In this document: positions 5,961-52,900 of the stretch, piece by piece
Layout: the number at the start of each line of letters is the position of its first letter
How positions within the stretch are numbered: position 1 is the stretch's first letter
Assembly (NCBI GenBank): GCA_964618505.1
Contig: CAZUBH010000003.1
Coordinates: 20,687 to 84,686 of the forward strand
Source of the DNA: an uncultured Thermoplasmatales archaeon
GTDB taxonomy: Archaea; Thermoplasmatota; E2; DHVEG-1
DNA: 64,000 nt
Direction of reading: 5' to 3'
The notes under the pieces: generated by a model
The model's database searches: none
Seen by the model: the letters and a program-made list of their open reading frames with translations, nothing else
What the model was told of the DNA's origin: nothing
Program-made: the position numbers and the translations under genes

Positions 5961-6001
5961 GAAAAGGGGTAAGAGTAATCCCTTATTAAAATTATTCCCT
6001 T

Positions 6002-9517: not shown

Positions 9518-9608
9518 TTATGCATATATAAATGGTTAGAAAATGTTTGGTAAAAGCCAAACTGCGATACCTTTTAATGTGTCTTTTTGTATTTGGTGGT
9601 TTGAAATC

Positions 9609-10940: not shown

Positions 10941-10941
10941 A

Positions 10942-12273: not shown

Positions 12274-12342
12274 AAAATTTATATTCTTACTATAAATACC
12301 AAAATAATATAAAATATGATGAATATATAATAAAATCAGAAA

Positions 12343-16100: not shown

Positions 16101-17314
16101 AAGATGGGAATAATTTTTCATATTTATCTGTTGATATATCTCAACTTGAAATTTCATCTGAAATTGACACTCTTATTGAAATATGGTTTAATATAACAGA
16201 TCTTGCAGATAATACAGCCACATTTCACAAAGCATTTAAACAAGACACAATAAAACCAACTTCAACAATATCAAATGATACAAACGGATCAGAGTTTAAA
16301 GTTGAACAAGTAAAAATAAATGTTACAGCTCAAGATCCAGGAGTTGAAGATGTTAATTCTAGTGGAATAGCATCCATTAAACTGTTTTATAGACATTCAA
16401 TATCTACAAGCTTTTCTGGCAGTTGGAAATCTTTCGGAGAAACTGCCATAAACGTAACCGAATACACTTGGAATTTTACAGCAGAAGAGGGCGGAGGCTA
16501 TTATGAGTTGATGACCCTTGCAACAGATGTAGCAGGAAATAATGAAAGCGATAAAGACGAAGGTGAAGTTAAATTTATAATGGACTCATTTGCACCGGAC
16601 AATCCTGATTATGATGATGAGATTTATTGGTTCAATGAAAGGCCTGAATTTTCATTTGATTTTGAAGATGATTTTAGACTTGATAAAATTGAGTATAGGC
16701 CAAGTTTTGAAACAATTTGGACAGTAATTGATGATAATATAGATGAAAGAGTATTTAGTGATAATTGGGAATTATCCGAAGAATTTTGGAATGAAATGCA
16801 AGAAGGAAATACTTATTACGTTTATTTCAGAATAACTGACTCTTTAGGCAATCAACTTCTAATTGAAAATACTGGTGATTCATTAAAACTAAGTAAAGAT
16901 GATTCAACACCCAATGTAAATATTAATGCACCCGGCTTAGACGTTGAATGGACATGGGAAGATAAATTTGAAATCGAAGCTTTTGTTGATGAGATTGGCA
17001 GTGGTCTTAAAAGCGTAGAATTGTACTATAGATATTCTAAAGATAATGATGATTGGAGCGAATGGGAAAAATATGGAGAAACTCTTACATCTACTCCTTT
17101 CAAATGGGATTTTGTAGCAGAAGAAGGTAATGGTTATTATGAATTTAAAATTATAGCAGAGGATGCTGCTGGAAATGTTGCAGAATCTGAAGTGTTTTCT
17201 ACAGGAATAAATTTACTTCCAATAGTACTTATCGCAGGATTTGTAGCGTTGATAATAGCACTGCTAGTAATATCTGTGATAATAATTTTAAAAATAAGAG
17301 TTAAGAAGAAATAA
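13118..17314 (+). CDS. Large cell-surface protein: signal peptide, PQQ-like beta-propeller repeats, repeated Ig-like domains, C-terminal TM anchor with basic tail
   Basis: 1398 aa. Repeats such as GKVYVGTPEGKFYALDADDGTTIWSF and GILYVSSPDGTIYALDVLDGTEKWS are PQQ/BamB-type. Duplicated EEGGGYYELMTLATDVAGNNES and EEGNGYYEFKIIAEDAAGNVAES modules. C-terminus LLPIVLIAGFVALIIALLVISVIIILKIRVKKK. Confidence 0.7.
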   Translation: MRPKYPVRVLAILGVILLTLSCISFPSSVAEITTYSEDGVWINTLSNESTIDFDSDKLIISDGVLQFNKTESGISYDYNDSNNHEAFGYQLNYLQFVLMKLLPIPSLTSPDRLLENKEEFSKFYDYPRIRFDDDKFAETPTDGLKNYAVQHFRFKLNTDYESIGNLDILWKGEAQNDEKILMLVYKYWPMADRQLGSWHQIDETSENMMIGQLKDDESLDASKDHVSDDNYLDVIIVAYSSLLGSCKLSTDYIKVVSESEEGYITGTSIATTHDSINPKEISDTSEFYWDTLSWEDSEKSDSKVKYQILRKGDVATKWIPVEDEYLPGNSEGFTEPPVNLNSINSDLYDKLKIRMNLTSDNPKYTPKVFDLTLTWQNDLNKWQDSFESSVRIGTKNKIKVNDGQVIINPVSGDWPTFGQNARNIRASDGKGPGSNELKWYAELSEQTSVVSPVVSGEFLYTLQKDSKNLFKYDITSEPNPDFFTIEYLESVELGKVLYSSPTIYGDYLIISTGATSSSGTSNYVYCFETDNLDNYKWRFKYNSDTCYWSNPVVENDIVYLSTWNGDIQAGDGNNNYKLFAIEIDQGQGYGNNINNDALLWEQNLPADSFSTPAVYNDVVYVGCQEDSENSLFAFDANTGANIWNKSIGSIGFASPVIYEENLFIVTRKASGLAATAEVLAIDTVDGGSLWNKTISRSLSTLRYTKSDNTPSIYNGILYVSSPDGTIYALDVLDGTEKWSTSLYDVIDLQGDIAGELLTSSTAYADGKVYVGTPEGKFYALDADDGTTIWSFNVASSSETVTTSAVVTNGFAFFGDENGILYAIGDYVEPDKEIEGYMISVPINLPQKKWWNKFYAHYNVTEGENSINFSILDEDGEFISNIQNKTNISLNDIDQDKKRTIRLRADFYANNSSVNPELFKWYVTFKADNNAPDFVENSFTPNPEGWSNDPTPLCSIDVWDNGTGLDMSSAEYKFKYKEKDGDDTKEKTGKLNYTGEDGNNFSYLSVDISQLEISSEIDTLIEIWFNITDLADNTATFHKAFKQDTIKPTSTISNDTNGSEFKVEQVKINVTAQDPGVEDVNSSGIASIKLFYRHSISTSFSGSWKSFGETAINVTEYTWNFTAEEGGGYYELMTLATDVAGNNESDKDEGEVKFIMDSFAPDNPDYDDEIYWFNERPEFSFDFEDDFRLDKIEYRPSFETIWTVIDDNIDERVFSDNWELSEEFWNEMQEGNTYYVYFRITDSLGNQLLIENTGDSLKLSKDDSTPNVNINAPGLDVEWTWEDKFEIEAFVDEIGSGLKSVELYYRYSKDNDDWSEWEKYGETLTSTPFKWDFVAEEGNGYYEFKIIAEDAAGNVAESEVFSTGINLLPIVLIAGFVALIIALLVISVIIILKIRVKKK

Positions 17315-31937: not shown

Positions 31938-32411
31938 CTAAATTTGCCATACCGATATTTTACAGTACCTTAACAGTACATCCGAACGCAAAAATCTACC
32001 AAAGAAATCATCAATCTTTGATTTTTTCTCCTTAGAAGAAGAACCATAACCACGTTTTGATTTGGGGTTTATCCTACGACTACGAGGTTTATTTTTACCA
32101 AAGAACTGTTTTTTCTCACTTTTTGATATGTCTGTATTAAAAACTTGACATGCCTTTGAGAGTTCATGGTAATTAAGAATCCTTGATGGATCATGTTGCA
32201 TCATCTCTTTTAATGCAAGCTTGTTTTTATCTTCAAGAAAATAAATAGATCTATTCTTGTATTGAGCTCGTTTTATAGAAGGAAATGTCTTCTGAAGAAA
32301 ACGAAGACGATTACCATTCTTACCCGTATAAACATATCCATCTTGGATAAGTTGTTTAAGAAGTTCAAGATTTTTACCATGAATATATGGTTTAGAAATT
32401 TTTCTTGACAT
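31938..32411 (-). CDS. Hypothetical basic protein (Lys/Arg-rich C-terminal half)
   Basis: 157 aa; no recognisable motif; its promoter and first 10 codons are duplicated at 37516-37560. Confidence 0.45.
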   Translation of the reverse strand: MSRKISKPYIHGKNLELLKQLIQDGYVYTGKNGNRLRFLQKTFPSIKRAQYKNRSIYFLEDKNKLALKEMMQHDPSRILNYHELSKACQVFNTDISKSEKKQFFGKNKPRSRRINPKSKRGYGSSSKEKKSKIDDFFGRFLRSDVLLRYCKISVWQI

Positions 32412-32428
32412 TATTTGATAGGTAAAAA
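32384..32428. repeat. Direct repeat copy A (~45 bp; partner at 37516-37560, 3 mismatches)
   Basis: tatatggtttagaaatttttcttgacattatttgataggtaaaaa versus tatatggttttgaaatttttcttgccattatttgaaaggtaaaaa; same orientation, 5.13 kb apart. Confidence 0.6.
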
Positions 32429-32463
32429 TATGATATAAAAAATCTGTGGTCAGGATTGTATTT

Positions 32464-37515: not shown

Positions 37516-37560
37516 TATATGGTTTTGAAATTTTTCTTGCCATTATTTGAAAGGTAAAAA
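37516..37560. repeat. Direct repeat copy B (~45 bp; partner at 32384-32428); carries a truncated copy (ATG + 10 codons, MARKISKPYT*) of the start of gene 31938..32411
   Basis: See copy A; on the minus strand it encodes MARKISKPYT* versus MSRKISKPYIHGK... at the intact gene. Confidence 0.6.
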
Positions 37561-37615
37561 AGTAGTATAAATAATTGATTAAGATTTTATATTGAAATCT
37601 ATTTAAGGTTTTACA

Positions 37616-39382
37616 ATGGGGTATAAGATTAATTATGATAAAGCTGAAGATGCTTATGATTTTATTAAGCAGGAATTGATTAAAAAAGGATACCATGTAA
37701 ATGGGTATAAAGAAATATCCTATGGAATACAATTTTATATTAAACTTGATAATGTAACTGAACTTCTTCGCATTTATTCCAGTAAAAAAGGAACTACTTT
37801 TGATGATTCACAAATTAAAAATATAAAAATTAAAAGTGATGTTTTATCAATATTTAATCTGACAGAAGATGATGAAACTTCCACAGAAAAAGAAGAGGTT
37901 TCATATGGAACTGTTTATTCTTTATGCGTTGGGATAAATAATTTCGTTGATAATAATTATGGTTCTTTAACTTATGCTGATAAAGATGCTGAAGAGCTTC
38001 ATCAATTACTTGTTGAAAAGTTTGGTGTGGGTGACGGTACTATAAAATTAGTCGATCAGGAGGCAAATTATAGAGATATTGTTAGCTCTATCGAAAATAT
38101 CAAAAAATTAGCAAAATTAGAAGATATAGTAATAATATTTTTTGCTACACATGGTGAATTTTTAAGACATAATGGATCTACTGATTTTTATTTAGTGTCT
38201 CATGATAGCGATCATAACAATCTGATACCAACTTCATTAGCTATGAGAACTCTTAAAAGTTTAGTATCAGAAATAAAATCTGAAAGAAAAGTGATTTTTT
38301 TAGACACATGTCATAGTGGTGGAATAACAAGACGAGACGGCAGAGATGTATCTTCAGATGTTAAAGAAGAGATTTTTAAAAATTTCTCCTCCGAAGATTT
38401 TGTGATTATTACATCTTGCCTTGAAAATGAATCATCACATGAGTCAAAAAAGTTTGAACATGGAGTTTTTACATATTATCTCTTGAGTGGTTTAACTGGT
38501 GCTGTTGAAATTAAAAATGATACAATTGATCTCTACACGTTATTTGTTTATATTAATAAATATGTAAAAGAATATGTGAAATCGGAACATAAGCGTAGTC
38601 AAACTCCAAGATTTTTCAGTAATCTAAAAGGACCTTTTGTTTTACCAAAATTAAAAGAATCAATTAAAAAAAGTTCAAATCTTAAACAATATATCAAGCC
38701 TGAACTTGATAATAAATCAGTTAAAGTAAAATTTGAAAATATTAATTGTATCGGTATTGATGAATCAGGTAAAGGAGATTATTTTGGACCATTAGTTATA
38801 GCAGGTGTATATGTTGATACTCAAGAAAAAGTCGAAAAATTAAAATCAATGGGTGTTAAAGATAGTAAAAAACTTAGTGATACAAGAATTAATGCATTAG
38901 CAAAAAGAATTATTCAAGATTTTGATAATGAAATAATAGTAATCTCTCCTTCCAAATATAATACTCTTTATGATAAGATGGCAAATATGAATGAAATACT
39001 TGCTTGGGGTCATTCTCAATCTTTAGAACAAATATTAATGAGAAATGAAGAATGTGAAATAGCAATTTCAGATCAATTTGCATGGAAAGAATTGTTGTTA
39101 AGTAAATTAAAAGAAAAAGGAAAACAAATCCAAGTAATACAAAGACCTAAAGCAGAGGAAAATCTTGTTGTTGCAGCTGCTTCAATTCTTGCAAGATCAA
39201 AGTATATTAACTATCTGGATAGGATGGGAAAAGATTTTAAACATAATTTTCCGAGAGGAGCAGGTCCTTTAGTTATTGATAGTGGAGTTAATTTTAAAAT
39301 AAAAGGTCTTGATTTAAATCAAGTAGCAAAAACAAGTTTTGGAACAACAAAAAAAATTAATGAATTATTTAATTCTAAGTAA
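37616..39382 (+). CDS. Three-part fusion protein: RNase HIII-like N-terminal domain + caspase-like (peptidase C14) His/Cys domain + RNase HIII catalytic domain
   Basis: The N-terminal ~90 aa (YIKLDNVTELLRIYSSKKGTTFDD) is reminiscent of the RNase HIII TBP-like N-domain. aa ~95-330 carry the caspase His (IIFFATHGEF) and Cys (VIFLDTCHSGG) dyad. aa ~375-588 start with GIDESGKGDYFGPLVIAGVYV, the RNase HIII-specific GKGDYFGP version of the RNase H2-family motif, and the rest aligns with the H2-fold catalytic core. Confidence 0.7.
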   Translation: MGYKINYDKAEDAYDFIKQELIKKGYHVNGYKEISYGIQFYIKLDNVTELLRIYSSKKGTTFDDSQIKNIKIKSDVLSIFNLTEDDETSTEKEEVSYGTVYSLCVGINNFVDNNYGSLTYADKDAEELHQLLVEKFGVGDGTIKLVDQEANYRDIVSSIENIKKLAKLEDIVIIFFATHGEFLRHNGSTDFYLVSHDSDHNNLIPTSLAMRTLKSLVSEIKSERKVIFLDTCHSGGITRRDGRDVSSDVKEEIFKNFSSEDFVIITSCLENESSHESKKFEHGVFTYYLLSGLTGAVEIKNDTIDLYTLFVYINKYVKEYVKSEHKRSQTPRFFSNLKGPFVLPKLKESIKKSSNLKQYIKPELDNKSVKVKFENINCIGIDESGKGDYFGPLVIAGVYVDTQEKVEKLKSMGVKDSKKLSDTRINALAKRIIQDFDNEIIVISPSKYNTLYDKMANMNEILAWGHSQSLEQILMRNEECEIAISDQFAWKELLLSKLKEKGKQIQVIQRPKAEENLVVAAASILARSKYINYLDRMGKDFKHNFPRGAGPLVIDSGVNFKIKGLDLNQVAKTSFGTTKKINELFNSK

Positions 39383-39856
39383 ATATAATAAGATCTCCTC
39401 TTTAATACCTTTAAACTTGATACCTTCTTTTTGAAATCCAATTCTTTCAAGTAATACTTGCATTCCTGTATTATTAATCCTTGTTGTAGCAAATATTTTT
39501 TTTGAAGGGGATATGTCTATCAATTTATTGATTAAATCATAGCAAACATTTCTTCTTCTAAAATGTTCTTTTGTATAGGCATAGCCAATTTCAAATATAT
39601 ATTCATTAACTTTATCAGGTATATTTGCTTTTTTAAAAACTGAATTTTTATAATTTATATCTGGATTTTTAAGAGCGGCTACCCCAGCAATTTCATTTTC
39701 GATATAATTAAAACCAAGTATCTCAGCACTCTTTATTCTTTTATTAAGAAAATATAGATTATCTTGGTTTCCTAATAATATCAAATTATAGAATGACTGA
39801 ATTTCATTTTTGCTACAATCTATAGGCTTTTTCGTTACTATCATTATTTTATGCAA
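39365..39856 (-). CDS. GNAT family N-acetyltransferase
   Basis: 163 aa; GVAALKN...IGYAYTKEHFRRRNVCYDLINKLID...GMQVLLERIGF; overlaps the 3' end of the fusion gene by 18 nt (convergent). Confidence 0.55.
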   Translation of the reverse strand: MHKIMIVTKKPIDCSKNEIQSFYNLILLGNQDNLYFLNKRIKSAEILGFNYIENEIAGVAALKNPDINYKNSVFKKANIPDKVNEYIFEIGYAYTKEHFRRRNVCYDLINKLIDISPSKKIFATTRINNTGMQVLLERIGFQKEGIKFKGIKEEILLYLLRIK

Positions 39857-40380: not shown

Positions 40381-40785
40381 TCAATATTCAACTTTTTTAT
40401 TATCGTTTACAAAATATACATTGATTTTTAGTTTGTTAAGAGATGGTTTAATACGTTCAATAATTCGCCTATGTGCTCCGTCACCAGGAAAAGCAATACC
40501 AACTTTACAATCCTTATTTTTTTCAAGAGTTTGCATAGTCTTATATACTGCCATAGCAACATGGTTTTTCTTTTGTGCATGAGTAAATTCTTTTCCTTCC
40601 CGGTTGCTATGTTTAGAACTTGTTTGACCTTTCGCTTCAATGAAGAGTTTTATTCCGTTTTTTTCTGCAATGATGTCATATCCTTTTTGATAAGTATCAC
40701 ATTTTTCTATGATAGTATATTCATTATGTTCTAAATGTTCACAAACAGAATCTATAATGTCATTTTCAGTTAGCATTTGAATCAA
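40381..40785 (-). CDS. PD-(D/E)xK-fold nuclease-like protein (Hjc/restriction-endonuclease-like)
   Basis: 134 aa; GYDIIAEKNGIKLFIEAKG fits D-x(n)-E-x-K with spacing like Hjc-type resolvases and Mrr-like nucleases. Confidence 0.5.
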   Translation of the reverse strand: MIQMLTENDIIDSVCEHLEHNEYTIIEKCDTYQKGYDIIAEKNGIKLFIEAKGQTSSKHSNREGKEFTHAQKKNHVAMAVYKTMQTLEKNKDCKVGIAFPGDGAHRRIIERIKPSLNKLKINVYFVNDNKKVEY

Positions 40786-41062: not shown

Positions 41063-44000
41063 TTGGAATTATTTGAAGGACAAATTATATCGGCATCTTT
41101 TTTAAATGATAAAGCAGAAGTGAAAAAGTTTGAGCGTCGTGCTGGTTATTATGTTCTTGAAGTAATTCTTTGTGGTAACCGGACTTTTAAAACTTTAAGG
41201 ATTTCTGAGTCTCAATTAAATCAGATTAAGGTTGTAACTTCTGATGTGTTGTCTTTTTCTAAGAATAGTGAAGATTTTTTCTTTTGGGTTGAGGCTAATA
41301 TTCTTAGATTGGCTTATCAGTTTGATCCTTTGCTTGCTGTTAATGTTTCTCAAGTAGATCCTCTTCCACATCAAATTGAAGCAGTGTATTCATATATATT
41401 GCGTGATCCAAAGGTCAGATTTTTAATTGCTGATGATGCTGGTGCGGGTAAGACTATTATGGCTGGTCTTGCGATAAAGGAACTGCAATATAGGAATATG
41501 GCTAAGAATGTTCTTGTGGTTGCTCCGGGTCATCTTAAGTATCAGTGGCAGCGTGAGATGAAAACTAAGTTTGGTACTAATTTTACTCTTGTTAATCGTG
41601 CGTTGATGGATTCTCATTGGGGTGAAAATGTTTGGGAGAATCTTAATTTTTGTGTAACATCAATTGATTTTCTTAAACAGGATGATATTATTGATAAGTT
41701 AAATGCTTCTTCTTGGGATTTTGTGGTTGTTGATGAAGCTCATAAGATGTCTGCATATGGTTATTCTAGTAAGAAAGGTGTTAAAATTGATAAAACGGGT
41801 AGGTATAAGGTTGGTGAGATTCTTTCTAAAAGAGCTACTCATATGTTGTTTTTAACGGCGACTCCGCATCGTGGTGATGAAGAGAATTTCCGTTTGTTTC
41901 TTGATTTGCTTCGTCCAGGTTTTTTTTCTAAAACTGATTTGTTAAAGGAGTCTATTCAAAATGATGAAAATCCTCTTTTTATTCGTCGTCTTAAGGAAGA
42001 CATGAAGGATTTTAAGGGTAACCAGCTTTTTACTCCTCGCCATGTGAGTACTGTGAGTTTTCCATTAACTGCTGAAGAGGATCATTTGTATCGTGAGGTT
42101 ACTAATTATGTTAAGGAACATTTTGATAGGGCTAAAGAAAATCGTTCTATTACTTTTGCTATGATGATTCTTCAGAGACGTTTGACTTCAAGTACGTATG
42201 CGATTCTTCGTTCTTTAGAGAGGCGGAAAGCTCGTCTTGAAGAAATTTTAGAATTGCCTGATAAAATTAATCAGGATAAAGAGTATGAAAAGGTAAAAAA
42301 TATTTCTCAGGAAGATCTTGATGATATGGGTGAGGAGGATCGCTGGGCGATTGAAGAGAAACTTATGAATTTAACTCTTGCTTCTAATATTTCTGAGGTT
42401 GAAGCTGAGATTGAAAAAGTTGGTGAGCTTATTGAGCTTGCTAAAACGGTTCATTCTAAAGAAATTGAGAGTAAGCTTGTGAAACTTCGTGATGAGATTC
42501 TTTCTACAATTGGGGATAATAAACTTTTAATTTTTACTGAGTTTAGAGATACTGTTGATTATTTAGTTGAAAAACTTCAATCCTGGGGTTATAAGGTTAA
42601 TACTATTCATGGTAGTATGAATATGGATGCTCGTATTGAAGCTGAGCATCAGTTTAAAAATGATACGCAGATTTTGGTTGCTACTGAGGCTGCTGGTGAG
42701 GGTATTAATCTTCAGTTTTGTTCTCTTATGGTTAATTATGATATCCCTTGGAATCCTAATCGGCTTGAGCAGAGAATGGGTCGTATTCATCGTTATGGTC
42801 AGAAAAAAGAGGTTTTTATTTATAATATGGTAAGTAAAAATACTCGTGAAGGGCAGATTCTTGAGCGTTTGTTTCAGAAGCTTAACAGTATGCGTGATGC
42901 ACTTGGTTCTGATCGTGTTTTTGATGTTATCGGTGAAATAATTCCTGGTGAGAGTCTTGAGGATATTTTAAAAGATGCAATTACGGGTCAGCGTCGTATT
43001 GAGGAGATTTATCAGATTGTTGATGAGATTGATGCTGCTGAAGTTGAAAAGAAGATGGAAAATATTTTTATGACTAGTCTTGCAACTCGTCATATTGATT
43101 ACTCGGGTATTATGAATAGTATTCATGAGGCTGATGAGAATCGTTTGATGCCTGAGTATATTGAGGATTTTTTCCTTCGTGCGTTTTCTCGTTTTGGTGG
43201 TAAGTTTGAAAAACGAACTGATACGTATAGTATTAAATCTGTTCCTTATGAGCTTAGAAAATTCAATAAGGATTATGATTTTAAATCAAGTTATGGAAAA
43301 GTTGAGAAATCGTATTCAAAGATTACTTTTGATAAACAAAAAGCAAAGGATAATCCAGAATATGAATATGTTGCCCCAGGTCATCCTTTGCTTGAAGCAG
43401 TGAATCAAAAAGCAATTGAGGACCGTGGTCATGATGATGCTGTCGCTGTTTTTACTGATGAGACAAACTCTCTTGAGGGTGTTCTTTGGTTTATTGAAGG
43501 AGAGCTTTTAGATGGACAGGGGCAGGTTGCTGGTAAAAGAGTGTTTAGTGTTTTTCAAAATATAAAAGGAGAGTTTGAAAAGGTTAATCCTTCTATTATT
43601 TGGGATCTTGCCCCAGCTGATAATGTTGTTTTAACGGAGACTCAGAGGCGTATGTTTGGTAAGAAAAATGATGTTGAAGAATATGCGATTACTGAAATCA
43701 TGTTTCCATATAAAGAAGAAATTGAGAAACAACGGAAGAAGGAATCTGATATAAAAGAAAAATATGGTTTGCGTTCACTTGATTATTTGCTTCAGGAATC
43801 CAATGATAAACTTCTTCATTACCAGGAGCAGCTTGAAGAAGGAAAAGATATGAATATTGCTATTATTAATGAGGAGAAACGAAAAGAGGATTTTGAGGAG
43901 AAACATGGTGCTCTTGTAGAAGAGATAAAACTTGAGAAAGAAATAACTGTATCTGAACCAAAAATTCTTGGTTCTGCAGCTGTATTGCCACTTAGCAGAG

Positions 44001-44437
44001 CTAAACCTGAGGTTTCAAAAGAGCTTAGTGGTGGTGGAATGACTCGTGATGATGAAATCGAAGCAGTAGGGATGGAAGAAGCAAAGAAGTTTGAAAAGGA
44101 AAATGGTTGGAGTCCACAGGATGTTCATAAAGAAAATCTTGGTTTTGATATAAGATCAACAAGATATCGGGAAGATGGAACTTTTGAGGATATTCGTTAT
44201 ATTGAGGTAAAAGCTCGTGCGCAGGATGGTTCAATTAGAGTTTCTGCTAATGAATGGAAAAAGGCTAAACGTTTTCAGGATAAGTTTTGGTTGTATGTTG
44301 TAACTTTTGCAGGTACTGATAATCCTAAACTAGAGCGTTATAAAAATCCTGAAAAAACCTTCACAATTGATGAAGATATTTATGCAACTGGTTATATTAT
44401 CCCAAAGGAAAAAATCTTGAAGGCGGTGAGTGAGTGA
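41063..44437 (+). CDS. SNF2-family helicase fused to C-terminal DUF3883-type PD-(D/E)xK nuclease-like domain
   Basis: Motifs I LIADDAGAGKT, II VVDEAHKM, III LFLTATPHRG, VI QRMGRIHRYGQ. C-terminal GFDIRSTRYREDGTFEDIRYIEVKARAQDGSIRVSANEW...LYVVTF is the DUF3883 pattern. Apparent TTG start with GAGGTGA Shine-Dalgarno 8 nt upstream. Confidence 0.85.
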   Translation: MELFEGQIISASFLNDKAEVKKFERRAGYYVLEVILCGNRTFKTLRISESQLNQIKVVTSDVLSFSKNSEDFFFWVEANILRLAYQFDPLLAVNVSQVDPLPHQIEAVYSYILRDPKVRFLIADDAGAGKTIMAGLAIKELQYRNMAKNVLVVAPGHLKYQWQREMKTKFGTNFTLVNRALMDSHWGENVWENLNFCVTSIDFLKQDDIIDKLNASSWDFVVVDEAHKMSAYGYSSKKGVKIDKTGRYKVGEILSKRATHMLFLTATPHRGDEENFRLFLDLLRPGFFSKTDLLKESIQNDENPLFIRRLKEDMKDFKGNQLFTPRHVSTVSFPLTAEEDHLYREVTNYVKEHFDRAKENRSITFAMMILQRRLTSSTYAILRSLERRKARLEEILELPDKINQDKEYEKVKNISQEDLDDMGEEDRWAIEEKLMNLTLASNISEVEAEIEKVGELIELAKTVHSKEIESKLVKLRDEILSTIGDNKLLIFTEFRDTVDYLVEKLQSWGYKVNTIHGSMNMDARIEAEHQFKNDTQILVATEAAGEGINLQFCSLMVNYDIPWNPNRLEQRMGRIHRYGQKKEVFIYNMVSKNTREGQILERLFQKLNSMRDALGSDRVFDVIGEIIPGESLEDILKDAITGQRRIEEIYQIVDEIDAAEVEKKMENIFMTSLATRHIDYSGIMNSIHEADENRLMPEYIEDFFLRAFSRFGGKFEKRTDTYSIKSVPYELRKFNKDYDFKSSYGKVEKSYSKITFDKQKAKDNPEYEYVAPGHPLLEAVNQKAIEDRGHDDAVAVFTDETNSLEGVLWFIEGELLDGQGQVAGKRVFSVFQNIKGEFEKVNPSIIWDLAPADNVVLTETQRRMFGKKNDVEEYAITEIMFPYKEEIEKQRKKESDIKEKYGLRSLDYLLQESNDKLLHYQEQLEEGKDMNIAIINEEKRKEDFEEKHGALVEEIKLEKEITVSEPKILGSAAVLPLSRAKPEVSKELSGGGMTRDDEIEAVGMEEAKKFEKENGWSPQDVHKENLGFDIRSTRYREDGTFEDIRYIEVKARAQDGSIRVSANEWKKAKRFQDKFWLYVVTFAGTDNPKLERYKNPEKTFTIDEDIYATGYIIPKEKILKAVSE

Positions 44438-47172
44438 AGAAACGTTTTATTGAATGGGATTTACCACTTGCAGAAATATCGGAAGCATCTGCAAATGAAA
44501 AGAACATTAGACATGGTCATCCATCTACACTCCATGTTTGGTGGGCAAGAAGACCACTAGCATCAAGCAGAGTTACAAATTTTACAGCATTAATAGATGT
44601 ACCAGATGATAAAAGCAAAAGAAAACAAATTACTGAGTTAATCAAAAATATATCTTCTTGGGAATCTGTAAAAAATGGTAATGACAAAAATATCAAAAAA
44701 TCTCAAGAGATTATAAAAGAAAATTGGGGGGATAATAAACCAAAAGTTTTAGATCCTTTTTCAGGCGGAGGATCAATACCTTTAGAGGCATTAAGATTGG
44801 GGTGTGATACATATATTAATGATTATAATCCTGTTGCGGTTTTAATTGAAAAAGCGACTATTGAATGGCCTCATAAATTTGGATTTTTGATCCCCCATCC
44901 TGATAAAAGTTCCGGAATTGATGGCGAAGTAGAAAAAATAAATTTTTTAAGTTATATGGTTGAAAAATGGACAAATAAAATATTAAATCAAGTAAAACAT
45001 GAAATTGGAAATTTTTATCTAAGTAAAGATGATGGTTCTATACCTGTAGGTTATCTATGGGCTAGAACAATTCCTTGTCAAAATCCCAATTGTGGAATAG
45101 AAATTCCTCTCGTTCGTCAATTTTGGTTATCAAAAAAATCTAATAAAAAAATTGCTTATAAACCTATAATTAATAAATCAAATAAAACAATAGATTTTGA
45201 AATTTTAAAAGACAACATGGGTGATTTTAATCCAAGTGAAGGAACTATTTCCAGAGGAAATGCAATTTGTCCTTTTTGTGGACAGGTTACTGAAGTCAAA
45301 AAAGTAAGAAAATTAGCACAAAATGGAAAGATGGGTGAAAGACTAGTAGTAAATATATATCGTCATCATAATAAAGTTGGTAAAACGTATACAATTTCAA
45401 CTGATAAAGATTTTAAAATTTTCAAAGAAATTGAGAAACTTTTAAAGGATAAACAAGAAAATTGGAAATGGTTGGAAAAACCAGTTCCTGATGAAGAACT
45501 TCCTTTGATGAGCGGAGTTTTTAATGTTCCATTATATGGTATAGATAATTGGGGTAAATTGTTTAATCCTCGTCAGAAACTATCATTAATAACCTTTTTA
45601 GAAAAGATAAAATCATCTTATAAAGAAATTTTATCTGAATGCAAACAAATAAATATTGAAAAAAATGGGAAAAATCCTGAGGAAGCTGCAAAAGCGATAA
45701 TGGGCTTTTTAGGAATTGTACTTGACATGCACGCTGCATTTAATAATAGGAATGCAAGATGGGAAAATACATCGGAAGCAATAAAGCATCTTTTTGGAAG
45801 ACAAGCATTAGGGATGATGTGGGATTATGTTGAAGTTTCTCCATTTAGTGGTTCCTCTGGTACACCAACATCAGGATTAGAATATTATAAAAAAAATATT
45901 GAATTCACTTCAAATGATGCACTGACAGGCAGAATCTTTATGACTAACACATCTGCAACATCCTTGCCATATTCGAACGATTTTTTCGATGCAATATTTA
46001 CAGATCCACCTTATTATAATAATGTACCATATGCAGATTTATCTGATTTTTTTTATGTCTGGTTAAAAAGAAGTGTTGGTGATTTATTTCCTGAAATGTT
46101 TTCGACACCATTAGCACCAAAATCAAAGGAAATTTGTGAAATGGCAGGGTGGGATAGTAAGAGATATTCAAATAAAGACCAAGCATTTTTTGAAACTGAA
46201 TTATCCAACTCATTTAAAGAGATATATCGTGTATTAAAACCAGAAGGTATTGTTACAATTGTTTATGCGCATAAAACAACAAAGGGATGGGAAACTGTAT
46301 TAAATTCTTTAATAAACGCAGGTCTTGTAGTAACAGCATCATGGCCTATACATACAGAGATGAAAGTTCGTCTAAGAGCAGCTTCTTCGGCAGCATTAGC
46401 ATCATCTATTTATCTTGTTTGTAGAAAAAAAGGTAGAAAAAAAGTTGGTTTCTATAGTGAAATTCAACCATTAATTAAAGAAAAAGTAGAAACTAAACTT
46501 AAACAATTTTGGGATGAAGGGATAGTGGGCGGTGACTTTTTTATTTCTTCGATTGGACCAGGTATGGAGATATATAGTCAGTATGAAAAAATTGAAAAAT
46601 TTTCAGGTGAAAAAGTTACGACAGTTGAGTTATTAGATTACATTCGAACAGTTTCTACTGATTTTATTGTAGGAAAACTTTTAAAAGATGCATCATCAGC
46701 TATTATTGATAATGAATCAGAATTTTATTTAGCCTATCGCTGGACATACCAAGATAATACTGTAGAATATGATGATGCAAGAAAATTATCAAATGCAAGT
46801 GGTGTTAATCTTGAAAAACTTTGGAATACTAATAGTTTTGTTGAGAAGAGTGGTTCAAAAATTAGGATACTTGGTCCAAAGGAACGCAATAAATTTGAAT
46901 CTTCACAAAACATGGTTGATGTTATGCATAAATCCTTATTATTCTGGGAAAACGGTGATAGGGAAAATATTTCAAAATTATTAGCAGAAACCGGATATGG
47001 TAAAGACCCTGCTTTTAAACAATTTTGTCAAGCTATTGCAGAATCACTTCTCAATGGTAATAAAGAAAAACAATTATTAGAAGGATTTTTAATAGGTATT
47101 GATGCTTATACAAGAGGAAAAGCAAAAGCTCCAAAGGATCAAACAGATTTAAAACAATTTGGAGGGAGTTAA
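44434..47172 (+). CDS. DUF1156-type DNA methyltransferase (N6-adenine/N4-cytosine, DPPY class)
   Basis: WWARRPLASSR (DUF1156 hallmark), motif I LDPFSGGGSIPLEA, catalytic FTDPPYYNNVPY; GTG start overlaps the helicase TGA (GTGA). Confidence 0.8.
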   Translation: MKKRFIEWDLPLAEISEASANEKNIRHGHPSTLHVWWARRPLASSRVTNFTALIDVPDDKSKRKQITELIKNISSWESVKNGNDKNIKKSQEIIKENWGDNKPKVLDPFSGGGSIPLEALRLGCDTYINDYNPVAVLIEKATIEWPHKFGFLIPHPDKSSGIDGEVEKINFLSYMVEKWTNKILNQVKHEIGNFYLSKDDGSIPVGYLWARTIPCQNPNCGIEIPLVRQFWLSKKSNKKIAYKPIINKSNKTIDFEILKDNMGDFNPSEGTISRGNAICPFCGQVTEVKKVRKLAQNGKMGERLVVNIYRHHNKVGKTYTISTDKDFKIFKEIEKLLKDKQENWKWLEKPVPDEELPLMSGVFNVPLYGIDNWGKLFNPRQKLSLITFLEKIKSSYKEILSECKQINIEKNGKNPEEAAKAIMGFLGIVLDMHAAFNNRNARWENTSEAIKHLFGRQALGMMWDYVEVSPFSGSSGTPTSGLEYYKKNIEFTSNDALTGRIFMTNTSATSLPYSNDFFDAIFTDPPYYNNVPYADLSDFFYVWLKRSVGDLFPEMFSTPLAPKSKEICEMAGWDSKRYSNKDQAFFETELSNSFKEIYRVLKPEGIVTIVYAHKTTKGWETVLNSLINAGLVVTASWPIHTEMKVRLRAASSAALASSIYLVCRKKGRKKVGFYSEIQPLIKEKVETKLKQFWDEGIVGGDFFISSIGPGMEIYSQYEKIEKFSGEKVTTVELLDYIRTVSTDFIVGKLLKDASSAIIDNESEFYLAYRWTYQDNTVEYDDARKLSNASGVNLEKLWNTNSFVEKSGSKIRILGPKERNKFESSQNMVDVMHKSLLFWENGDRENISKLLAETGYGKDPAFKQFCQAIAESLLNGNKEKQLLEGFLIGIDAYTRGKAKAPKDQTDLKQFGGS

Positions 47173-47175
47173 AAT

Positions 47176-49845
47176 ATGACAACTTGGTATGATGTTGTAG
47201 AACCGCATGAAGATATTAAAAAAGGAGACTTTGATGAAGCAATATTTGCTGCAAAACTTGGAGATGTTGCTTTAGGAAAAGCAGTAGTTGATTATAACGA
47301 ACCATCACTTTTTTTCAAAAAAACCTATTTTACAGAGGGGATAAACAATCTTCTTTCAATGGTCTATAATAAACTTAAAAACGGTAAAGGATCATCCGTT
47401 GTTGAAATAAAAACTCCTTTTGGTGGTGGTAAAACACATGCGTTAATTGCAATTTATCATTATATCAAAAACGGCAATAAAGTAAGAAGCCAACTTCCTC
47501 AAAATTTAAAACCAATTGATGCAGATGTTGCAGTTATTGTTGGAACACAATTAAATCCCGTGGAAGGACATAATAGAGATGGAATAACAATAAACACCAT
47601 CTGGGGAGAAATAGTATATCAACTAGCTGGAAAAGACGGATATCAACGATTTGAAAAGAACGATAAAGATCGTATAGCACCGGGAAAAGAAAAACTCAGA
47701 GAATTTTTTGAACAATGCGGACCATTTGTAATTCTTTGTGATGAAGTATTACAATACATAACAAAAGCACGAGGAGTAAAATATCATGATACAAATCTTG
47801 CTTCACAAACATTTGCATTCCTACAAGAATTAACAGAAACAATATCATCATTGAATCATGGAATGCTTGTTGTAACTCTACCATCAAGCTATCTAGAAGA
47901 TTATACTGATAGAGAAGAAGAATCACTTGCAAAACTTGAAAAAGTCTTTGGAAGAATAGAATCAATAGAAACACCAGTTAAAGGAGAAGAAATATACTCA
48001 ATTATTCGAAGAAGACTATTTTCAACAATAATAAATGAAGAAGAAAAAAGTAATATTATCCTAAAATATTTTAAACATTATCAAAAACAAAAAGATGAAC
48101 TGCCTTCAAAAGCAAAAGAAGTTGATTACAAGAGAAAAATGGAACTATCTTATCCATTTCACCCTGAAGTAATAGATATACTCTATGAAAAATGGGGAAC
48201 CTTTTCATCATTTCAACGAACGAGAGGAGTATTAAGACTTCTTGCAAACGTAATAGAAGATTTATACAACAAAGAAACAAATATTGATATCATTCTACCC
48301 TCAGATATCAGACTTGATGCACCATCTGTACGACAAGAATTCATAAAACACATCGGAAGTGAATACGAAAGCATAATAGGCTCAGATATTTCAGGTCATG
48401 AAGCAAAAGCTTTACAACTAGATAAAGAAAACAAAGGATGGAAACATCTTGCAGAACGAATATCAACAGCAATATTTTTTTACTCATTTTCTGGAGACAA
48501 ATCAGAAAAAGGAGCAACACTAGAAAACATAAAATTCACAGTAATGCACACCGATACAATCACACCAATGATAACAGAAGTACTACAACGACTCAACAAA
48601 TCACTATGGTACATCAATGAAAGAGGAGAAATGTACCGATTTTCAAAAATACCAAATCTTAACAGAATGATACTTGACAAAAAAGAACTCTACAACGAAA
48701 CATATATAGACGAAATGATAAAGATCCTTCAAAAAGAAACAGGAAACGCGTTTCAAACCTTCCTATGGCCAAAAAAATCAGAAGACATACCAGATAACAA
48801 AGAAATAAAACTAGTAATACTCAGACCAGATGAAAAAGAAGACACACCACAAAAATGGCTAGAAAAGAAAGGAAACACTTTTAGAACATACAAAAACACA
48901 TTAATATTTGCATTAGCAGATCCAGCAGGATATGGAGCGTTCAAAGAAGAAATAAAAACATATCTTGCACTAAAAGAAATAGAACATGAAATAAAAACAG
49001 ACAAAGAAAGCGGCCTTACAGAAAAAACAGAAGAAGTAACCGAACGAATGAGAAGAATCAAAGACGATATATCATTTAACACTAGAAGAATGTATAACAT
49101 TCTAATAATCGGAAAAGAAAAAATATCCTTAGGCCAGCCAACAGTAGGAAAAGAAAGCCTATCTAACTGGTATAAAATAGAACTTGAATCAAGAGAAAAA
49201 ACAGCAACAAATCTACACTACAGATTTATTCTAAACAAATTCATGCAAGGAAAAGAAAAACTAGAAACAAAAATAATAATAGACCAATTCTACAAAGACC
49301 CAACATTTGTAATACCAACATCACAAGAAGTAATCAAGCGCTCAATACAACAAGGAATTGTAGAAGGAGCATTTGGATTAGGATACATACAAGATAACAA
49401 AATCGATAAAGACACAATAAAATATAAATCAAACATACCAACAAACTCAATATCCCTAGACGAAGGAGAAATCCTGATATCAAAAGAACTAGCAATAAAA
49501 CTACAACAAGAACAAACAGAAGAAGAACCAACACCACCTAATGAAGAAAAACCAAAAGGACCAGAATATCCCCAAGGAACAAGTGGTGGAGAAACACAAA
49601 TAAAAGAAGGAGAAAAAAGATACAAAAAAATCTCTTTGAGAATAGAGGACATCCCAGCATCAAAAATAGCAGATCTAAGCAGAGGCGTACTAATGCCAAT
49701 AAGTCGAGAAATAGGATCTTTTAAATTCAACATGGAAATTGAAATACAAAACGAAGAAGGGGTATCAGAAAAAACAATAAAAGACAAAGTAAAAGAAACC
49801 ATATCTCAAATAGGTGCAAAAATAACAAAGGATGAGTGTGAGTAA
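47176..49845 (+). CDS. DUF499-family P-loop ATPase (BrxC/PglY-like)
   Basis: 889 aa; P-loop TPFGGGKTHALIAIYHY; GGAGGG Shine-Dalgarno; 3 nt after the MTase stop. Confidence 0.7.
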   Translation: MTTWYDVVEPHEDIKKGDFDEAIFAAKLGDVALGKAVVDYNEPSLFFKKTYFTEGINNLLSMVYNKLKNGKGSSVVEIKTPFGGGKTHALIAIYHYIKNGNKVRSQLPQNLKPIDADVAVIVGTQLNPVEGHNRDGITINTIWGEIVYQLAGKDGYQRFEKNDKDRIAPGKEKLREFFEQCGPFVILCDEVLQYITKARGVKYHDTNLASQTFAFLQELTETISSLNHGMLVVTLPSSYLEDYTDREEESLAKLEKVFGRIESIETPVKGEEIYSIIRRRLFSTIINEEEKSNIILKYFKHYQKQKDELPSKAKEVDYKRKMELSYPFHPEVIDILYEKWGTFSSFQRTRGVLRLLANVIEDLYNKETNIDIILPSDIRLDAPSVRQEFIKHIGSEYESIIGSDISGHEAKALQLDKENKGWKHLAERISTAIFFYSFSGDKSEKGATLENIKFTVMHTDTITPMITEVLQRLNKSLWYINERGEMYRFSKIPNLNRMILDKKELYNETYIDEMIKILQKETGNAFQTFLWPKKSEDIPDNKEIKLVILRPDEKEDTPQKWLEKKGNTFRTYKNTLIFALADPAGYGAFKEEIKTYLALKEIEHEIKTDKESGLTEKTEEVTERMRRIKDDISFNTRRMYNILIIGKEKISLGQPTVGKESLSNWYKIELESREKTATNLHYRFILNKFMQGKEKLETKIIIDQFYKDPTFVIPTSQEVIKRSIQQGIVEGAFGLGYIQDNKIDKDTIKYKSNIPTNSISLDEGEILISKELAIKLQQEQTEEEPTPPNEEKPKGPEYPQGTSGGETQIKEGEKRYKKISLRIEDIPASKIADLSRGVLMPISREIGSFKFNMEIEIQNEEGVSEKTIKDKVKETISQIGAKITKDECE

Positions 49846-49847: not shown

Positions 49848-50975
49848 GTGGATAATACTGTTTCTCAACAAGAGATCAATTCCCTCATCTATAGAATGGA
49901 AAAACTCGAAAAGAAAAAGAATACAAAACGAAGAACAAGTGTGAAAGTAAACGGAAAAGAAATCCTTTTAAGAAAGGCGTATAAAGAACCAAAATTCCAT
50001 CATAAAACAGTACTAACCCATGATACTTGGAGATATGTTGATATTTTCCTGAAAGGGATGAGAAATAAAGAAGGAGATAAAGCAAGAAAATATTGGGAAC
50101 AAGCAAGGCAATTTTATATCGCTTCAAAACAATTAAAAGAATATGCTTCTCCTTTAACATTGTATTATTCTTATTTAAATGCTACAAAGGCGCTATTGTA
50201 TTCAAAGAAACATAGATTTGTCGACACATACCATGGGATTTCTAGTCTCGATAACGATGATTCGATCTCGATTTATAGTGAAAGAATACGATTATGTAAA
50301 GAAGGTGTCTTACCCGGGTTATGTGAGTATTATGGTGAAGATTCTTGCGAAAATATAGAATATTCTTTAAAATGGGTTCTTTACAATATACCTTATATAC
50401 ATCGTGCTTTCTCATTGACCTATTCGGGATCAAGTAATCTTTTCATACCAATTATGAATCCGATGTTTGTATATGATTCAAAGACTAAGGAAATATGGTT
50501 AGAATCTGAATTGGAACAAAAATACTCAAACAAAACCACTTTAAATATGCTAAAGAATTTTGAAATCGATGACTATTACAACAAGAACAATTATGTAATT
50601 AAGTCAAAAGAAAAACTAAAAGTAAATACATCATACTGTCTACAAAAAAAAGATATTGGAAAGTTTTTAACATTCTATCAGTGCATTAGAAAAAATGTTG
50701 ATTATATACATGGACCTAAAGATCTTTGGTACATTAAGAGGAGCCATATCTCAAATTCAATAAATCGTACTACAATGGTGTTAACACTTGCAGCTATGCA
50801 TAAGCTTAGTAGTTTAGCTAGATATCATCCCGAACGATTAGAAAAATATCTTTCAAAAAATACTCATTGGTTACTCTCAGAATTTATCCATATATCTCCA
50901 GATCAATTTATCGATCAGATTGCTTGTGAGATTACAGGATGTAATTTACAAATACCTGGCATTAAAATTGAATGA
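49848..50975 (+). CDS. Hypothetical protein, fourth gene of the helicase-MTase-ATPase operon
   Basis: 375 aa; GTG start 2 nt after the DUF499 stop; no motif recognised by eye (not PglZ-sized). Confidence 0.45.
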   Translation: MDNTVSQQEINSLIYRMEKLEKKKNTKRRTSVKVNGKEILLRKAYKEPKFHHKTVLTHDTWRYVDIFLKGMRNKEGDKARKYWEQARQFYIASKQLKEYASPLTLYYSYLNATKALLYSKKHRFVDTYHGISSLDNDDSISIYSERIRLCKEGVLPGLCEYYGEDSCENIEYSLKWVLYNIPYIHRAFSLTYSGSSNLFIPIMNPMFVYDSKTKEIWLESELEQKYSNKTTLNMLKNFEIDDYYNKNNYVIKSKEKLKVNTSYCLQKKDIGKFLTFYQCIRKNVDYIHGPKDLWYIKRSHISNSINRTTMVLTLAAMHKLSSLARYHPERLEKYLSKNTHWLLSEFIHISPDQFIDQIACEITGCNLQIPGIKIE

Positions 50976-51199: not shown

Positions 51200-52900
51200 C
51201 GCTTTATGTAAAGATACATTTATATATAGGTATTACATACTACTATAATACTGTAATACTATGAATGGGTTTTAAATGAAAACAACCAAACAAAGTATCT
51301 CCAAAACAGAAATTGAAAAGGAGATATACTGCACATTCGAACTATTCAACAAAGAAAAAAATATCAGCATAGCAGATTTCATAGAAAAACTCGATATCTC
51401 AACGATAAAACATCAAGACTATAGAAAAATAAAATTCTCATATGAATCACTCATAAGATTCATACTCTATCAAAAACTCAAAAAATTCAGATTCATAACA
51501 CAAACAAGACAACATCTTAAAATCCATCCGGAGGAAGGAATACAACTCGGTTTCAAAGAAATACCAAATAGAAGACAAATAGGATACTTCCAAAATCATA
51601 TACTTAACAAAGAAACAAAAGAATTACTTAATTTTATCATAAATAAAGTAGAAGAAATAACAGATAAGTTTGGAATAACACTTGATATAGTATCTCTAAA
51701 ACCAAAGAAGATAAAACCTACTAAGACCAGAAATCAATATTATATTAGAGATAAGAAAACCAGAGAGATCTGTCAACTTGTAAAAAAACGATTCTCACCT
51801 TTTATTGATTTCAAACTCAACTACAATAGCCTCTACAAGAAGAAGCAGTTCATTGATCTCATGATACACATGGGGATGACAAGGGATTTTGCTGAAAATG
51901 GTAGTAAAACATTCAAGGAAATCAAAGGGCAAAAAAGCCCAAACTCAGATACTCTCCTATATCATATTAAAAATCATAATGATTTAAAAGAAATACAAAA
52001 AATGTATCTCACCCTTTTTGAAATACTATGGGAAATGACAAAACAAACAAATGTTATTGATCTCAGAAAATCATATGATGTAGCAATTGATTATACTGAA
52101 TGGTATTTCTATGGAGATAGAAGCACTCCAATGGTTGTTGGCAAAAAACCTGAAAGAGGAACCAGTAAATGCTACAAGTTTGCAACCATCAACATAGTTG
52201 AATCAGGAAAAAGATTTACATTACTTGCATTACCTGTAGGCGCGTTCGATACAAAAGAAAAGATCTTGAAACAACTGTTTACCTATGCTTTGAAACGAAT
52301 TAGAATCAAACGAGTTTATGTTGATCGTGGATTTTTTGATTCAAAATCGATAAACACAATAAAACAGTTCAGACTAAAGTTTCTCATGCCTTGTACAGCA
52401 AACGCGAGAATAAAGAAAATCCTGGACATTATGCCTTCTCCGACAGTAATAAATGATTACGAAATGGAAAATACACTTTTTAATGTAGTAATAGTAGAAG
52501 ATGATGATGGAAACAAACGAGCATTTGCCACCAATGAACAATTCAACGAAAACGATGTAGATCTGGCAACAAGACTCTTTCTTCTTTATGGTAAAAGATG
52601 GGGTATAGAGACGAGTTATAAAGTCAAAAAACATTCATTTCTACCTAAGACAACCTCTAAGAATTATCTTATTAGAATATTCTACTTTTTATTTTCAGTA
52701 TTGTTGTATAATCTTTGGTTACTTGCGGATATTCTTATCTGGCTTGCTCTCTTTGGAGAAGTAAAACAAGACCATCTCATTACCTCAAAATACTTTGGAA
52801 CCATACTTTATACAATAGATCCTGGAGGAGGATAACATGATACTTCAAATCAAATCTTTATTACCTTTTTCGCCTTAATTTATAATAGATCTATATTCTA
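51200..52900 (+). mobile_element. IS element (IS4/ISH3-like); ends approximate, terminal inverted repeats not resolved by eye
   Basis: Single transposase ORF with TATA-like catttatatatagg ~50 nt upstream; same A-rich codon style as the adjacent DUF499 gene. Confidence 0.4.
51276..52835 (+). CDS. DDE transposase, IS4/ISH3-like family
   Basis: D in AIDYTEWYFYGD, D in RVYVDRGFFD, and E in the YGKRWGIETSYKVKK (Y-x2-R-x3-E-x6-K) motif. Confidence 0.8.
   Translation: MKTTKQSISKTEIEKEIYCTFELFNKEKNISIADFIEKLDISTIKHQDYRKIKFSYESLIRFILYQKLKKFRFITQTRQHLKIHPEEGIQLGFKEIPNRRQIGYFQNHILNKETKELLNFIINKVEEITDKFGITLDIVSLKPKKIKPTKTRNQYYIRDKKTREICQLVKKRFSPFIDFKLNYNSLYKKKQFIDLMIHMGMTRDFAENGSKTFKEIKGQKSPNSDTLLYHIKNHNDLKEIQKMYLTLFEILWEMTKQTNVIDLRKSYDVAIDYTEWYFYGDRSTPMVVGKKPERGTSKCYKFATINIVESGKRFTLLALPVGAFDTKEKILKQLFTYALKRIRIKRVYVDRGFFDSKSINTIKQFRLKFLMPCTANARIKKILDIMPSPTVINDYEMENTLFNVVIVEDDDGNKRAFATNEQFNENDVDLATRLFLLYGKRWGIETSYKVKKHSFLPKTTSKNYLIRIFYFLFSVLLYNLWLLADILIWLALFGEVKQDHLITSKYFGTILYTIDPGGG

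Follow-up and report, generated by a model that had tools for sequence, protein, structure and literature searches.

An open reading frame (ORF) in which a caspase-like protease is embedded in a ribonuclease (RNase) HIII was found in a 64,000-nucleotide (nt) stretch of contig CAZUBH010000003.1 from an uncultured Thermoplasmatales archaeon. This whole stretch is called the window below, and all positions are those of the window unless a contig is named. The product, of 588 amino acids (aa), has the N-terminal and the catalytic domain of RNase HIII, with a peptidase C14 domain between them. The same composition had been proposed in a preliminary description of this DNA, and profile searches, a structural model and homologues all agreed with it: the middle segment was recovered as Peptidase_C14, the C-terminal segment as RNase_HII/rnhC, and the N-terminal segment as an RNase HIII N-domain by a family-built model. 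The ORF and its parts were delimited as follows.

37616 to 39382, forward strand: the whole ORF, comprising N-domain, caspase and RNase HIII, 588 aa from an ATG start, stop codon counted in.
37616 to 37864, forward strand: aa 1–83, a TBP-like N-domain (beta-alpha-beta4-alpha) of the RNase HIII/RnlA type, predicted to bind RNA:DNA hybrids.
37865 to 37903, forward strand: aa 84–96, linker 1, acidic and disordered (predicted local distance difference test score, pLDDT, below 50 at aa 84–95) and variable in the 19-sequence alignment.
37904 to 38650, forward strand: aa 97–345, the peptidase C14 domain, metacaspase/orthocaspase-like by Pfam PF00656, Foldseek and residue invariance.
38150 to 38152 and 38309 to 38311, forward strand, within the C14 domain: H179 and C232, the caspase dyad.
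Within 37904 to 38650, forward strand: D124, D230 and E276, the acidic candidates for a pocket of the C14 domain, and R/K239, a basic residue conserved there.
38651 to 38734, forward strand: aa 346–373, the Lys-rich linker 2 (pLDDT below 50 at aa 349–360; the rnhC profile match begins at aa 355).
38735 to 39379, forward strand: aa 374–588, the RNase HIII catalytic domain by TIGR00716, PDB sequence matches, Foldseek and invariance.
38759 to 38764, 39071 to 39073 and 39155 to 39157, forward strand, in the catalytic domain: D382/E383, D486 and E514; the DSK motif (D416/K418) lies in the same domain.

The ORF list of the window gave a single, uninterrupted frame at 37616–39382, and an independent Logan assembly contained the identical ORF (contig L088). 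Since 19 full-length homologues from independent assemblies were found as well, an assembly artefact was ruled out: the ORF is a real gene and no chimera. The AlphaFold2 model, calculated with 19 homologues as input (pLDDT 86.9; predicted template modelling score 0.75), consisted of three folded modules with disordered linkers at aa 84–95 and 349–360 between them. Both the RNase HIII fold and the caspase fold were recovered from it with Foldseek.

One relative, on a 16.5-kb contig binned as Methanosarcinales (L009, span 7701–9516), was split into two frames, with the N-domain and caspase at 7701–8870 and the RNase HIII part at 8845–9513. Either the sequence is in error at this place or the copy is a pseudogene. 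The split speaks for an artefact or a decaying gene, that is, a chimera assembled from a caspase gene and an rnhC gene, or else a fusion in which a domain is inactive. Given the identical ORF in the independent assembly, the colinearity of 19 homologues drawn from four sources (NCBI, JGI, ENA and Logan), the invariant catalytic residues and the confident three-domain model, such an explanation is hardly credible.

The C-terminal module was identified as RNase HIII by sequence and by structure. Pfam RNase_HII (PF01351) matched aa 379–575 with an E-value of 1.9e-29. NCBIfam rnhC (TIGR00716) gave 177.7 bits against an equivalog cut-off of 161.2, with aa 355–575 covering profile positions 58–282 of 284. 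The nearest solved structures by sequence were Thermovibrio RNase H3 (4py5) and Bacillus stearothermophilus (Bst) RNase HIII (2d0a), and a Foldseek search of the PDB with this module returned RNase HIII/HII structures, the Bst enzyme 2d0a at E 1.6e-17.

This C-terminal third opens with GIDESGKGDYFGP, the RNase HIII-type motif singled out in the preliminary description, which holds D382 and E383. These two residues, together with D486 and E514, align to the motifs of Bst RNase HIII. The D-E-D-E set was therefore complete in the fusion protein, and it was invariant in the 19 sequences.

The N-terminal domain escaped the standard profiles. A Pfam search with aa 1–98 alone gave no match, PF11858 included, and a profile-profile comparison of the fusion N-domain with PF11858-type N-domains was not significant. 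On the other hand, a hidden Markov model (HMM) built from aa 1–88 of the family matched the extreme N-termini of dozens of RNase HIIIs of ordinary length (~325 aa) at E ~1e-24. It also matched the N-termini of longer RNase HIIIs. The signature common to the fusion and these enzymes was I-x-YG-[IL]-QF ... [IL]-R-[IV]-[YF]-x-S-KKG ... D-x-SQ-x-K.

By these matches to dozens of RNase HIII N-termini, aa 1–83 are a genuine TBP-like domain of the RNase HIII/RnlA type, of a subtype that the Pfam model misses. The resemblance noted earlier for the first ~90 aa was thereby upheld, and the TBP-like domain that belongs at the N-terminus of an RNase HIII was present in the fusion protein.

The insertion point was located by BLASTP alignment to an RNase HIII of 329 aa (P0024), whose 90% cluster includes a protein labelled Firmicutes/Bacillota. 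Two colinear blocks were obtained, aa 12–82 aligning to 9–78 and aa 374–581 to 121–328, the latter (catalytic) block with 50% identity. Some 290 aa, with the caspase, stand where the ordinary enzyme has an interdomain linker of ~40 aa. By this two-block alignment, the caspase sits exactly within the RNase HIII interdomain linker, in agreement with the earlier proposal of a protease inserted between two RNase HIII halves.

In its dimensions the fusion departed from the usual plan of an RNase HIII, which is two domains, a short linker and ~300 aa in all; here there are 588 aa, with ~290 aa between the blocks. Against the 660-aa RNase HIII P0023 (JCM16358_08340) of the cultured Halanaerocella petrolearia, BLASTP aligned aa 336–581 to 415–658 with 53% identity. 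This alignment reached into the pre-catalytic linker, and long bacterial RNase HIIIs have part of linker 2 in front of their own catalytic domain.

The middle module was a clear member of peptidase C14. Pfam Peptidase_C14 (PF00656) matched aa 103–341 with an E-value of 2.7e-22 and 80 bits, against a cut-off of 21.4. Foldseek returned MALT1 paracaspase, GSU0716 and metacaspases 4 and 9 at E 1e-8 to 1e-11, and the caspase profile aligned to AtMC4, Yca1 and GSU0716. The His and Cys of the dyad were found in FFATHGEF (H179) and LDTCHSGG (C232), where the preliminary description had placed them.

Assignment of this segment to C14 or CHAT, as first suggested, stood for C14 and failed for CHAT: the CHAT protease profile (PF12770) reached 17.8 bits against a threshold of 24 and was rejected. 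The best NCBIfam caspase match was the EACC1-associated caspase (NF047832), a type known from conflict systems. It was also rejected, with 97.1 bits against a cut-off of 140 and no recurrent neighbour. Among the matches listed, the caspase domain was 25–35% identical to caspases outside the fusion family.

In the alignment with metacaspases, D124 corresponded to the Asp of the 'ND' motif and D230 to the Asp of DSCHSGG; both were invariant in the family, as was E276. Going by the structures of MALT1, TbMCA2 and AtMC4, all three align to positions of the basic-specific S1 pocket of metacaspases and paracaspases, and they are candidates for such a pocket in the fusion. The protease is accordingly predicted to cut after Arg or Lys. 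A basic residue (R/K239, usually RR) was present seven residues past C232 in all 19 of 19 homologues, and the loop that carries it is a candidate autoprocessing site of the p20/p10 type. The loop just past the catalytic Cys (aa 235–240, 38318–38335) was modelled with low confidence.

To place the fusion among known proteins, databases of several kinds were searched. A word-indexed search of 5.8 billion proteins produced 21 further clusters of the same architecture, giving ~22 in all. The homologues were mostly 575–599 aa long, with three fragments of 368–441 aa, and were 44–75% identical to the query. Where they carried a database name at all, it was 'ribonuclease HIII', and the search disclosed no common family already annotated for this architecture; one of the proteins came from a metagenome-assembled genome (MAG) of Nanoarchaeota/Woesearchaeota. 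In the alignment of the 19 full-length members, H179, C232, D382, E383, D486, E514, D416, K418, D124, D230 and E276 were invariant. Judged from this alignment, both active sites are intact and under purifying selection.

When 1.84 billion representatives at 50% identity were searched exhaustively with HMMER, the list contained two full-length fusions (P0006 and P0020) and four fragments. A scan of 185,579 species-representative genomes with the caspase segment gave at least two close loci. Two such reference loci were among the matches listed, one in a Woesearchaeota MAG and one on the contig binned as Methanosarcinales (L009), whose label may be a binning error. The next-best caspases among these matches were bacterial and at most 35% identical, and one that was inspected (L010) was without an RNase HIII domain.

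The scans of metagenome contigs and genome contigs were dominated by generic bacterial caspases, and their counts are lower bounds. The scan of viral contigs gave RNase H domains only and no fusion. The fusion family is thus very rare and patchy, and occurs in DPANN-like archaea.

RNase HII is the usual enzyme of archaea. Bacterial proteins of the Firmicutes type were the closest RNase HIII relatives of the fusion. RNase HIII is rare in archaea, where it was probably acquired horizontally (PMC3597702), and the statement on its rarity in the preliminary description was borne out. Apart from PMC3710099, full-text literature searches found no paper in which RNase HIII (or H3) was brought together with caspases or anti-phage defence. 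The caspase within an RNase HIII may thus be a new domain architecture, and possibly a new trigger for a caspase-like effector.

RNase HIIIs with other inserts were also present in the homologue list. All the other unusually long ones (~590–690 aa) formed one cluster by their N-terminal ~400 aa. These proteins (P0023, P0025, P0027, P0029, P0035, P0050, P0064, P0066 and others) were bacterial and make up a family of some size. They have the same N-domain, followed by DUF3378 (a second TBP-like domain), RnlA-DBD (HEPN) and the RNase HIII catalytic domain, and an R-x4-H motif is invariant in them. When their profile was compared with PDB sequences, RNase HII/HIII and a weak TBP match were obtained, and RnlA was not reached. 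By domain content, the long forms are effectively RnlA–RNase HIII hybrids, and they appear to be uncharacterised.

The slot that holds DUF3378 and the RnlA-DBD/HEPN with its Rx4H motif in the long forms is occupied by the C14 protease in the fusion. Identity of the fusion with an RnlA/LsoA toxin was rejected, because the fusion has no HEPN domain: there was no Pfam match to RnlA_toxin or RnlA-DBD, and only the TBP-like N-domain resembles RnlA. No RnlB-like antitoxin or conserved small neighbour was found beside the fusion gene at the ten loci compared below.

A protease was found in some further relatives. In P0172 (785 aa) and P0197 (617 aa), Pfam placed a Lon_C (S16) protease upstream of the RNase HIII catalytic domain. 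Five others of ~760–790 aa (P0174, P0191, P0213, P0268 and P0272), in which the catalytic domain lies at the same position as in P0172, are presumed to share this architecture. By the domain assignments, P0172 and P0197 are a second, independent combination of a protease with RNase HIII. Like the caspase fusion, the Lon_C proteins (~780 aa) unite in a single polypeptide an RNase HIII catalytic domain and, upstream of it, a protease. They differ in that the protease is a serine protease (S16) and in being without the N-domain subtype of the fusion, and they are uncharacterised.

Because the relatives carry RnlA-type HEPN, Lon_C or Swt1-like HEPN modules, the caspase family is a rare instance of a wider pattern of RNase HIII frames that bear an effector module. 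In the caspase family this module is a protease and not an RNase. Two-headed RNases, and fusions of RnlA to RNase H or TBP-like domains, have been described by Anantharaman et al. (PMC3710099). Other RNase HIII fusions in the list had a C-terminal Swt1-like HEPN (P0075, P0084, P0093, P0100 and P0113), C-terminal TPR repeats (P0057), an N-terminal FolD, methylene-tetrahydrofolate dehydrogenase/cyclohydrolase (P0079 and P0096), or an N-terminal HIT domain (P0082).

Compared with bacterial RNase HIII (2d0a, 4py5 and the Aquifex enzyme 3vn5), the fusion has the same TBP-like N-domain, DEDE site, and GKG and DSK motifs. It differs in the ~250-aa caspase with two linkers, in an N-domain subtype invisible to PF11858 and in its archaeal host, and its activity is predicted. 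With orthocaspases and metacaspases (MaOC1, AtMC4, Yca1 and GSU0716) it shares the fold, the HG...DxCHSGG context, the acidic pocket candidates at D124, D230 and E276, and the basic residue past the Cys. In those proteins, however, the caspase is N-terminal or stands alone, whereas in the fusion it is embedded inside another enzyme.

Caspase-like immune effectors of prokaryotes include the SAVED-CHAT/type III CRISPR protease cascade, the type III-E Craspase (Csx29), STAND/Avs, EACC1 and gasdermin-activating proteases. Their known triggers are CRISPR complexes, cyclic oligonucleotides and STAND NTPases. The fusion is like these effectors in joining a putative nucleic-acid- or signal-sensing module to a His/Cys protease of the caspase fold. 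It is unlike them in that the putative sensor is an RNase HIII with an intact active site in the same polypeptide, and in that the gene has no partner of the CRISPR, cyclic-oligonucleotide, STAND NTPase or gasdermin kind nearby.

In our interpretation, the fusion would be an accessory enzyme of DPANN-like archaea that works alone, belongs to the conflict or defence type and links the recognition of RNA:DNA hybrids to proteolysis; we give this interpretation an even chance. The single-protein sensor-effector suggested in the preliminary description is plausible on this view. It would be accessory because it occupies few loci in 185,579 genomes, because RNase HIII is foreign to most archaea, and because its nearest relatives are bacterial. 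The conflict type is suggested by the construction of these relatives as modular effectors, by the gene contexts in the window and at L001, L003, L005 and L091, and by the best NCBIfam caspase match, of the EACC1-associated type, although its score is below the cut-off.

In such an enzyme, a bacterial-type RNase HIII would be the outer frame, with a predicted-active metacaspase-like protease spliced into its linker. RNA:DNA hybrids, for example R-loops or intermediates of viral or plasmid replication or transcription, would be held by the N-domain and the catalytic domain together, and the latter would cleave their RNA strand. Binding might switch on the protease through a clamping of the flanking domains around the caspase. 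Alternatively, several molecules might be loaded side by side on one hybrid and be activated by proximity as in other caspases; for proteases of the caspase fold, proximity or oligomerisation and autoprocessing are common routes of activation.

The activated protease would then cut after Arg or Lys, in itself (candidate site R239–R240) and/or in host or invader proteins, and the outcome may be growth arrest or blocked replication. The RNase H activity would destroy the activating hybrid and so limit the response. In its most specific form, the model makes the protein a scaffold and a timer: RNase HIII–caspase molecules would co-load on an invader hybrid, the proteases would be activated by proximity or clamping, and RNase H would erase the signal. 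This specific form we consider unlikely. More generally, the RNase HIII frame would be a platform for sensing hybrids, not recognised before, to which different effectors (RnlA-type HEPN, caspase, Lon) were added on several occasions.

The genomic surroundings were compared at ten loci, namely the window, L001, L003, L004, L005, L006, L007, L089, L090 and L091. A type IIG restriction-modification enzyme, a Cas4-like nuclease (3.2 kb upstream of the fusion gene) and an integrase were present at L001. An IS240 transposase and a set of C5-methyltransferase, NgoPII and Vsr genes were present at L003, and type I restriction-modification genes at L091. At L005, a type III methyltransferase, a type III restriction endonuclease, a 76-aa ORF, a Cas4-like nuclease, the fusion gene and an unannotated 312-aa ORF are on one strand (4180–12678). 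They are separated by 1-nt gaps or overlap by 4 nt, and from this spacing the gene set looks like one operon. The homologue loci also carry TBP, eIF-6, prefoldin, Hjc and thermosome genes, and their GC content is 31–40%.

Several results weigh against the conflict-type interpretation. Restriction-modification or defence genes lay within ~6 kb at 5 of the ten loci, namely the window, L001, L003, L005 and L091, but this is a raw count without a background rate. No neighbour was conserved across the ten loci, the sole recurrence being the Cas4-like PD-(D/E)xK nuclease common to L001 and L005 (67% identical). The surroundings were purely housekeeping at L006 (DNA ligase, SRP54, eIF-6, KsgA and Hjc around the fusion gene) and uninformative at L004, L007, L089 and L090. 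With the fusion protein, PADLOC gave a weak generic caspase match only. No second RNase H2-family gene was found in the ~64-kb window or in ~150 kb of homologue loci, which are a small share of each genome.

The last finding, and the position of the L006 copy amid replication and translation genes that include DNA ligase and Hjc, favour a housekeeping RNase HIII for the removal of R-loops or primers. The inserted caspase would then be regulatory, acting through autoprocessing and turnover or turning replication or R-loop stress into a proteolytic stress or death response; a role of that kind has been proposed for some orthocaspases and metacaspases. The RNase HIII part does pass the rnhC equivalog cut-off with all its catalytic residues intact, the gene stands single and without a partner like an ordinary rnhC, and the flanks of the window are ordinary chromosome (LeuRS, TrpRS, thermosome and DnaK). 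We regard this explanation, the main rival, as rather unlikely. With at least two of 185,579 reference genomes and a handful of 50%-identity representatives, the fusion is very sparsely distributed for a core gene, and in archaea RNase HIII is itself rare and probably a product of horizontal transfer (PMC3597702). Its nearest relatives here are proteins of bacteria, many of them fused to toxin-type HEPN or protease modules, and half of the ten loci lie beside restriction-modification systems or mobile elements. The frameshifted copy at L009, if real, suggests a dispensable gene.

Alternatively, the protein might be a 'two-headed' effector or toxin, in which RNase HIII and caspase act independently, each harming its own class of target, and are restrained by a non-conserved antitoxin or by expression control, as in RnlA–RnlB. 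Such a protein would have precedents in the two-headed RNases and the RnlA fusions to RNase H or TBP-like domains already on record (PMC3710099), and the caspase stands in the slot that an RnlA-type HEPN toxin domain holds in the relatives. Cleavage of an antitoxin, from a toxin-antitoxin system, by an orthocaspase is also reported (PMC7935541). At several loci the fusion gene has small variable ORFs on its flanks, yet none fit to be an antitoxin recurred at the ten loci. In addition, the hybrid-binding-type N-domain is kept in all members, a sign that the protein as a whole depends on recognising its substrate, and no toxicity of RNase HIII alone is known. Independent action of the two heads thus seems distinctly unlikely.

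If the conflict-type interpretation is true, a protease inside a hybrid-recognising enzyme would be a new and very compact link from a nucleic-acid danger signal to proteolysis. Leads to defence candidates made of a single gene are few in DPANN archaea, and the fusion is among them. The same frame with an RnlA-type HEPN or a Lon protease suggests a wider, unnoticed class of hybrid-directed effectors, which may bear on why RnlA-type toxins keep TBP-like domains. A housekeeping enzyme would still be an unusual case of domain insertion into a core nucleic-acid enzyme. The interest is tempered by the rarity of the family and its uncultured hosts, the function being inferred.

The window itself is archaeal chromosome, with genes for a thermosome, archaeal-type LeuRS, TrpRS and SRP54, plus GrpE and DnaK. 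The features nearest to the fusion gene were as follows.

32384 to 32443: first copy of a 60-nt direct repeat, 87% identical to the second copy.
37516 to 37575: second copy of the 60-nt direct repeat, 40 nt upstream of the fusion start codon, at the end of a 5.1-kb cassette.
39365 to 39856, reverse strand: GNAT acetyltransferase, convergent with the fusion gene, the 3' ends overlapping by 18 nt (39365–39382).
Between the GNAT gene and the next entry, downstream of the fusion: a 69-aa ORF.
40381 to 40785, reverse strand: a 134-aa protein with weak UPF0102 and NOV_C matches, both below the Pfam cut-offs.
41063 to 49845: a complete Hma candidate defence system by PADLOC (HmaA 690 bits, HmaB 453 bits, HmaC 497 bits).
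49848 to 50975: a YaaC-like protein, after the Hma system.
51276 to 52835: a DDE transposase, followed by the thermosome, GrpE and DnaK genes.

The cassette between the repeats encodes an ArsR helix-turn-helix protein, an ArsP permease, thioredoxin-like proteins and a DsbD-like membrane protein. Being bracketed by repeats, it suggests an insertion with target duplication, or an att-like site. The second repeat copy retains the apparent start of a gene resembling the ORF at 31938–32411 on the reverse strand.

The direct repeat confirmed that the fusion gene lies just downstream of a repeat-flanked cassette, as first described. Its position at the entry of a defence island also held for the window, where the block of HmaA/B/C, YaaC and transposase begins 1.7 kb downstream of the gene. 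HmaA is an SNF2 helicase with a C-terminal NOV_C domain, HmaB a DUF1156 adenine methylase and HmaC a DUF499 ATPase. Membership of the fusion in the Hma system was rejected, as three opposite-strand ORFs intervene and no Hma genes were present at the nine homologue loci.

The GNAT and the small nuclease-like protein named earlier as neighbours were both present, but the ten-locus comparison did not bear them out as conserved partners. The overlap with the GNAT gene was also seen in the independent Logan contig L088, and GNAT was absent beside other family members. The NOV_C match at the C-terminus of the neighbouring HmaA is strong, and the 134-aa protein could be one of the island's nuclease modules in detached form.

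Two long ORFs lay elsewhere in the window. The one at 60628–63918 (reverse strand, 1096 aa) had no NCBIfam match at E <= 1e-10, and the one at 13118–17314 (forward strand, 1398 aa) matched PQQ/beta-propeller repeats only.

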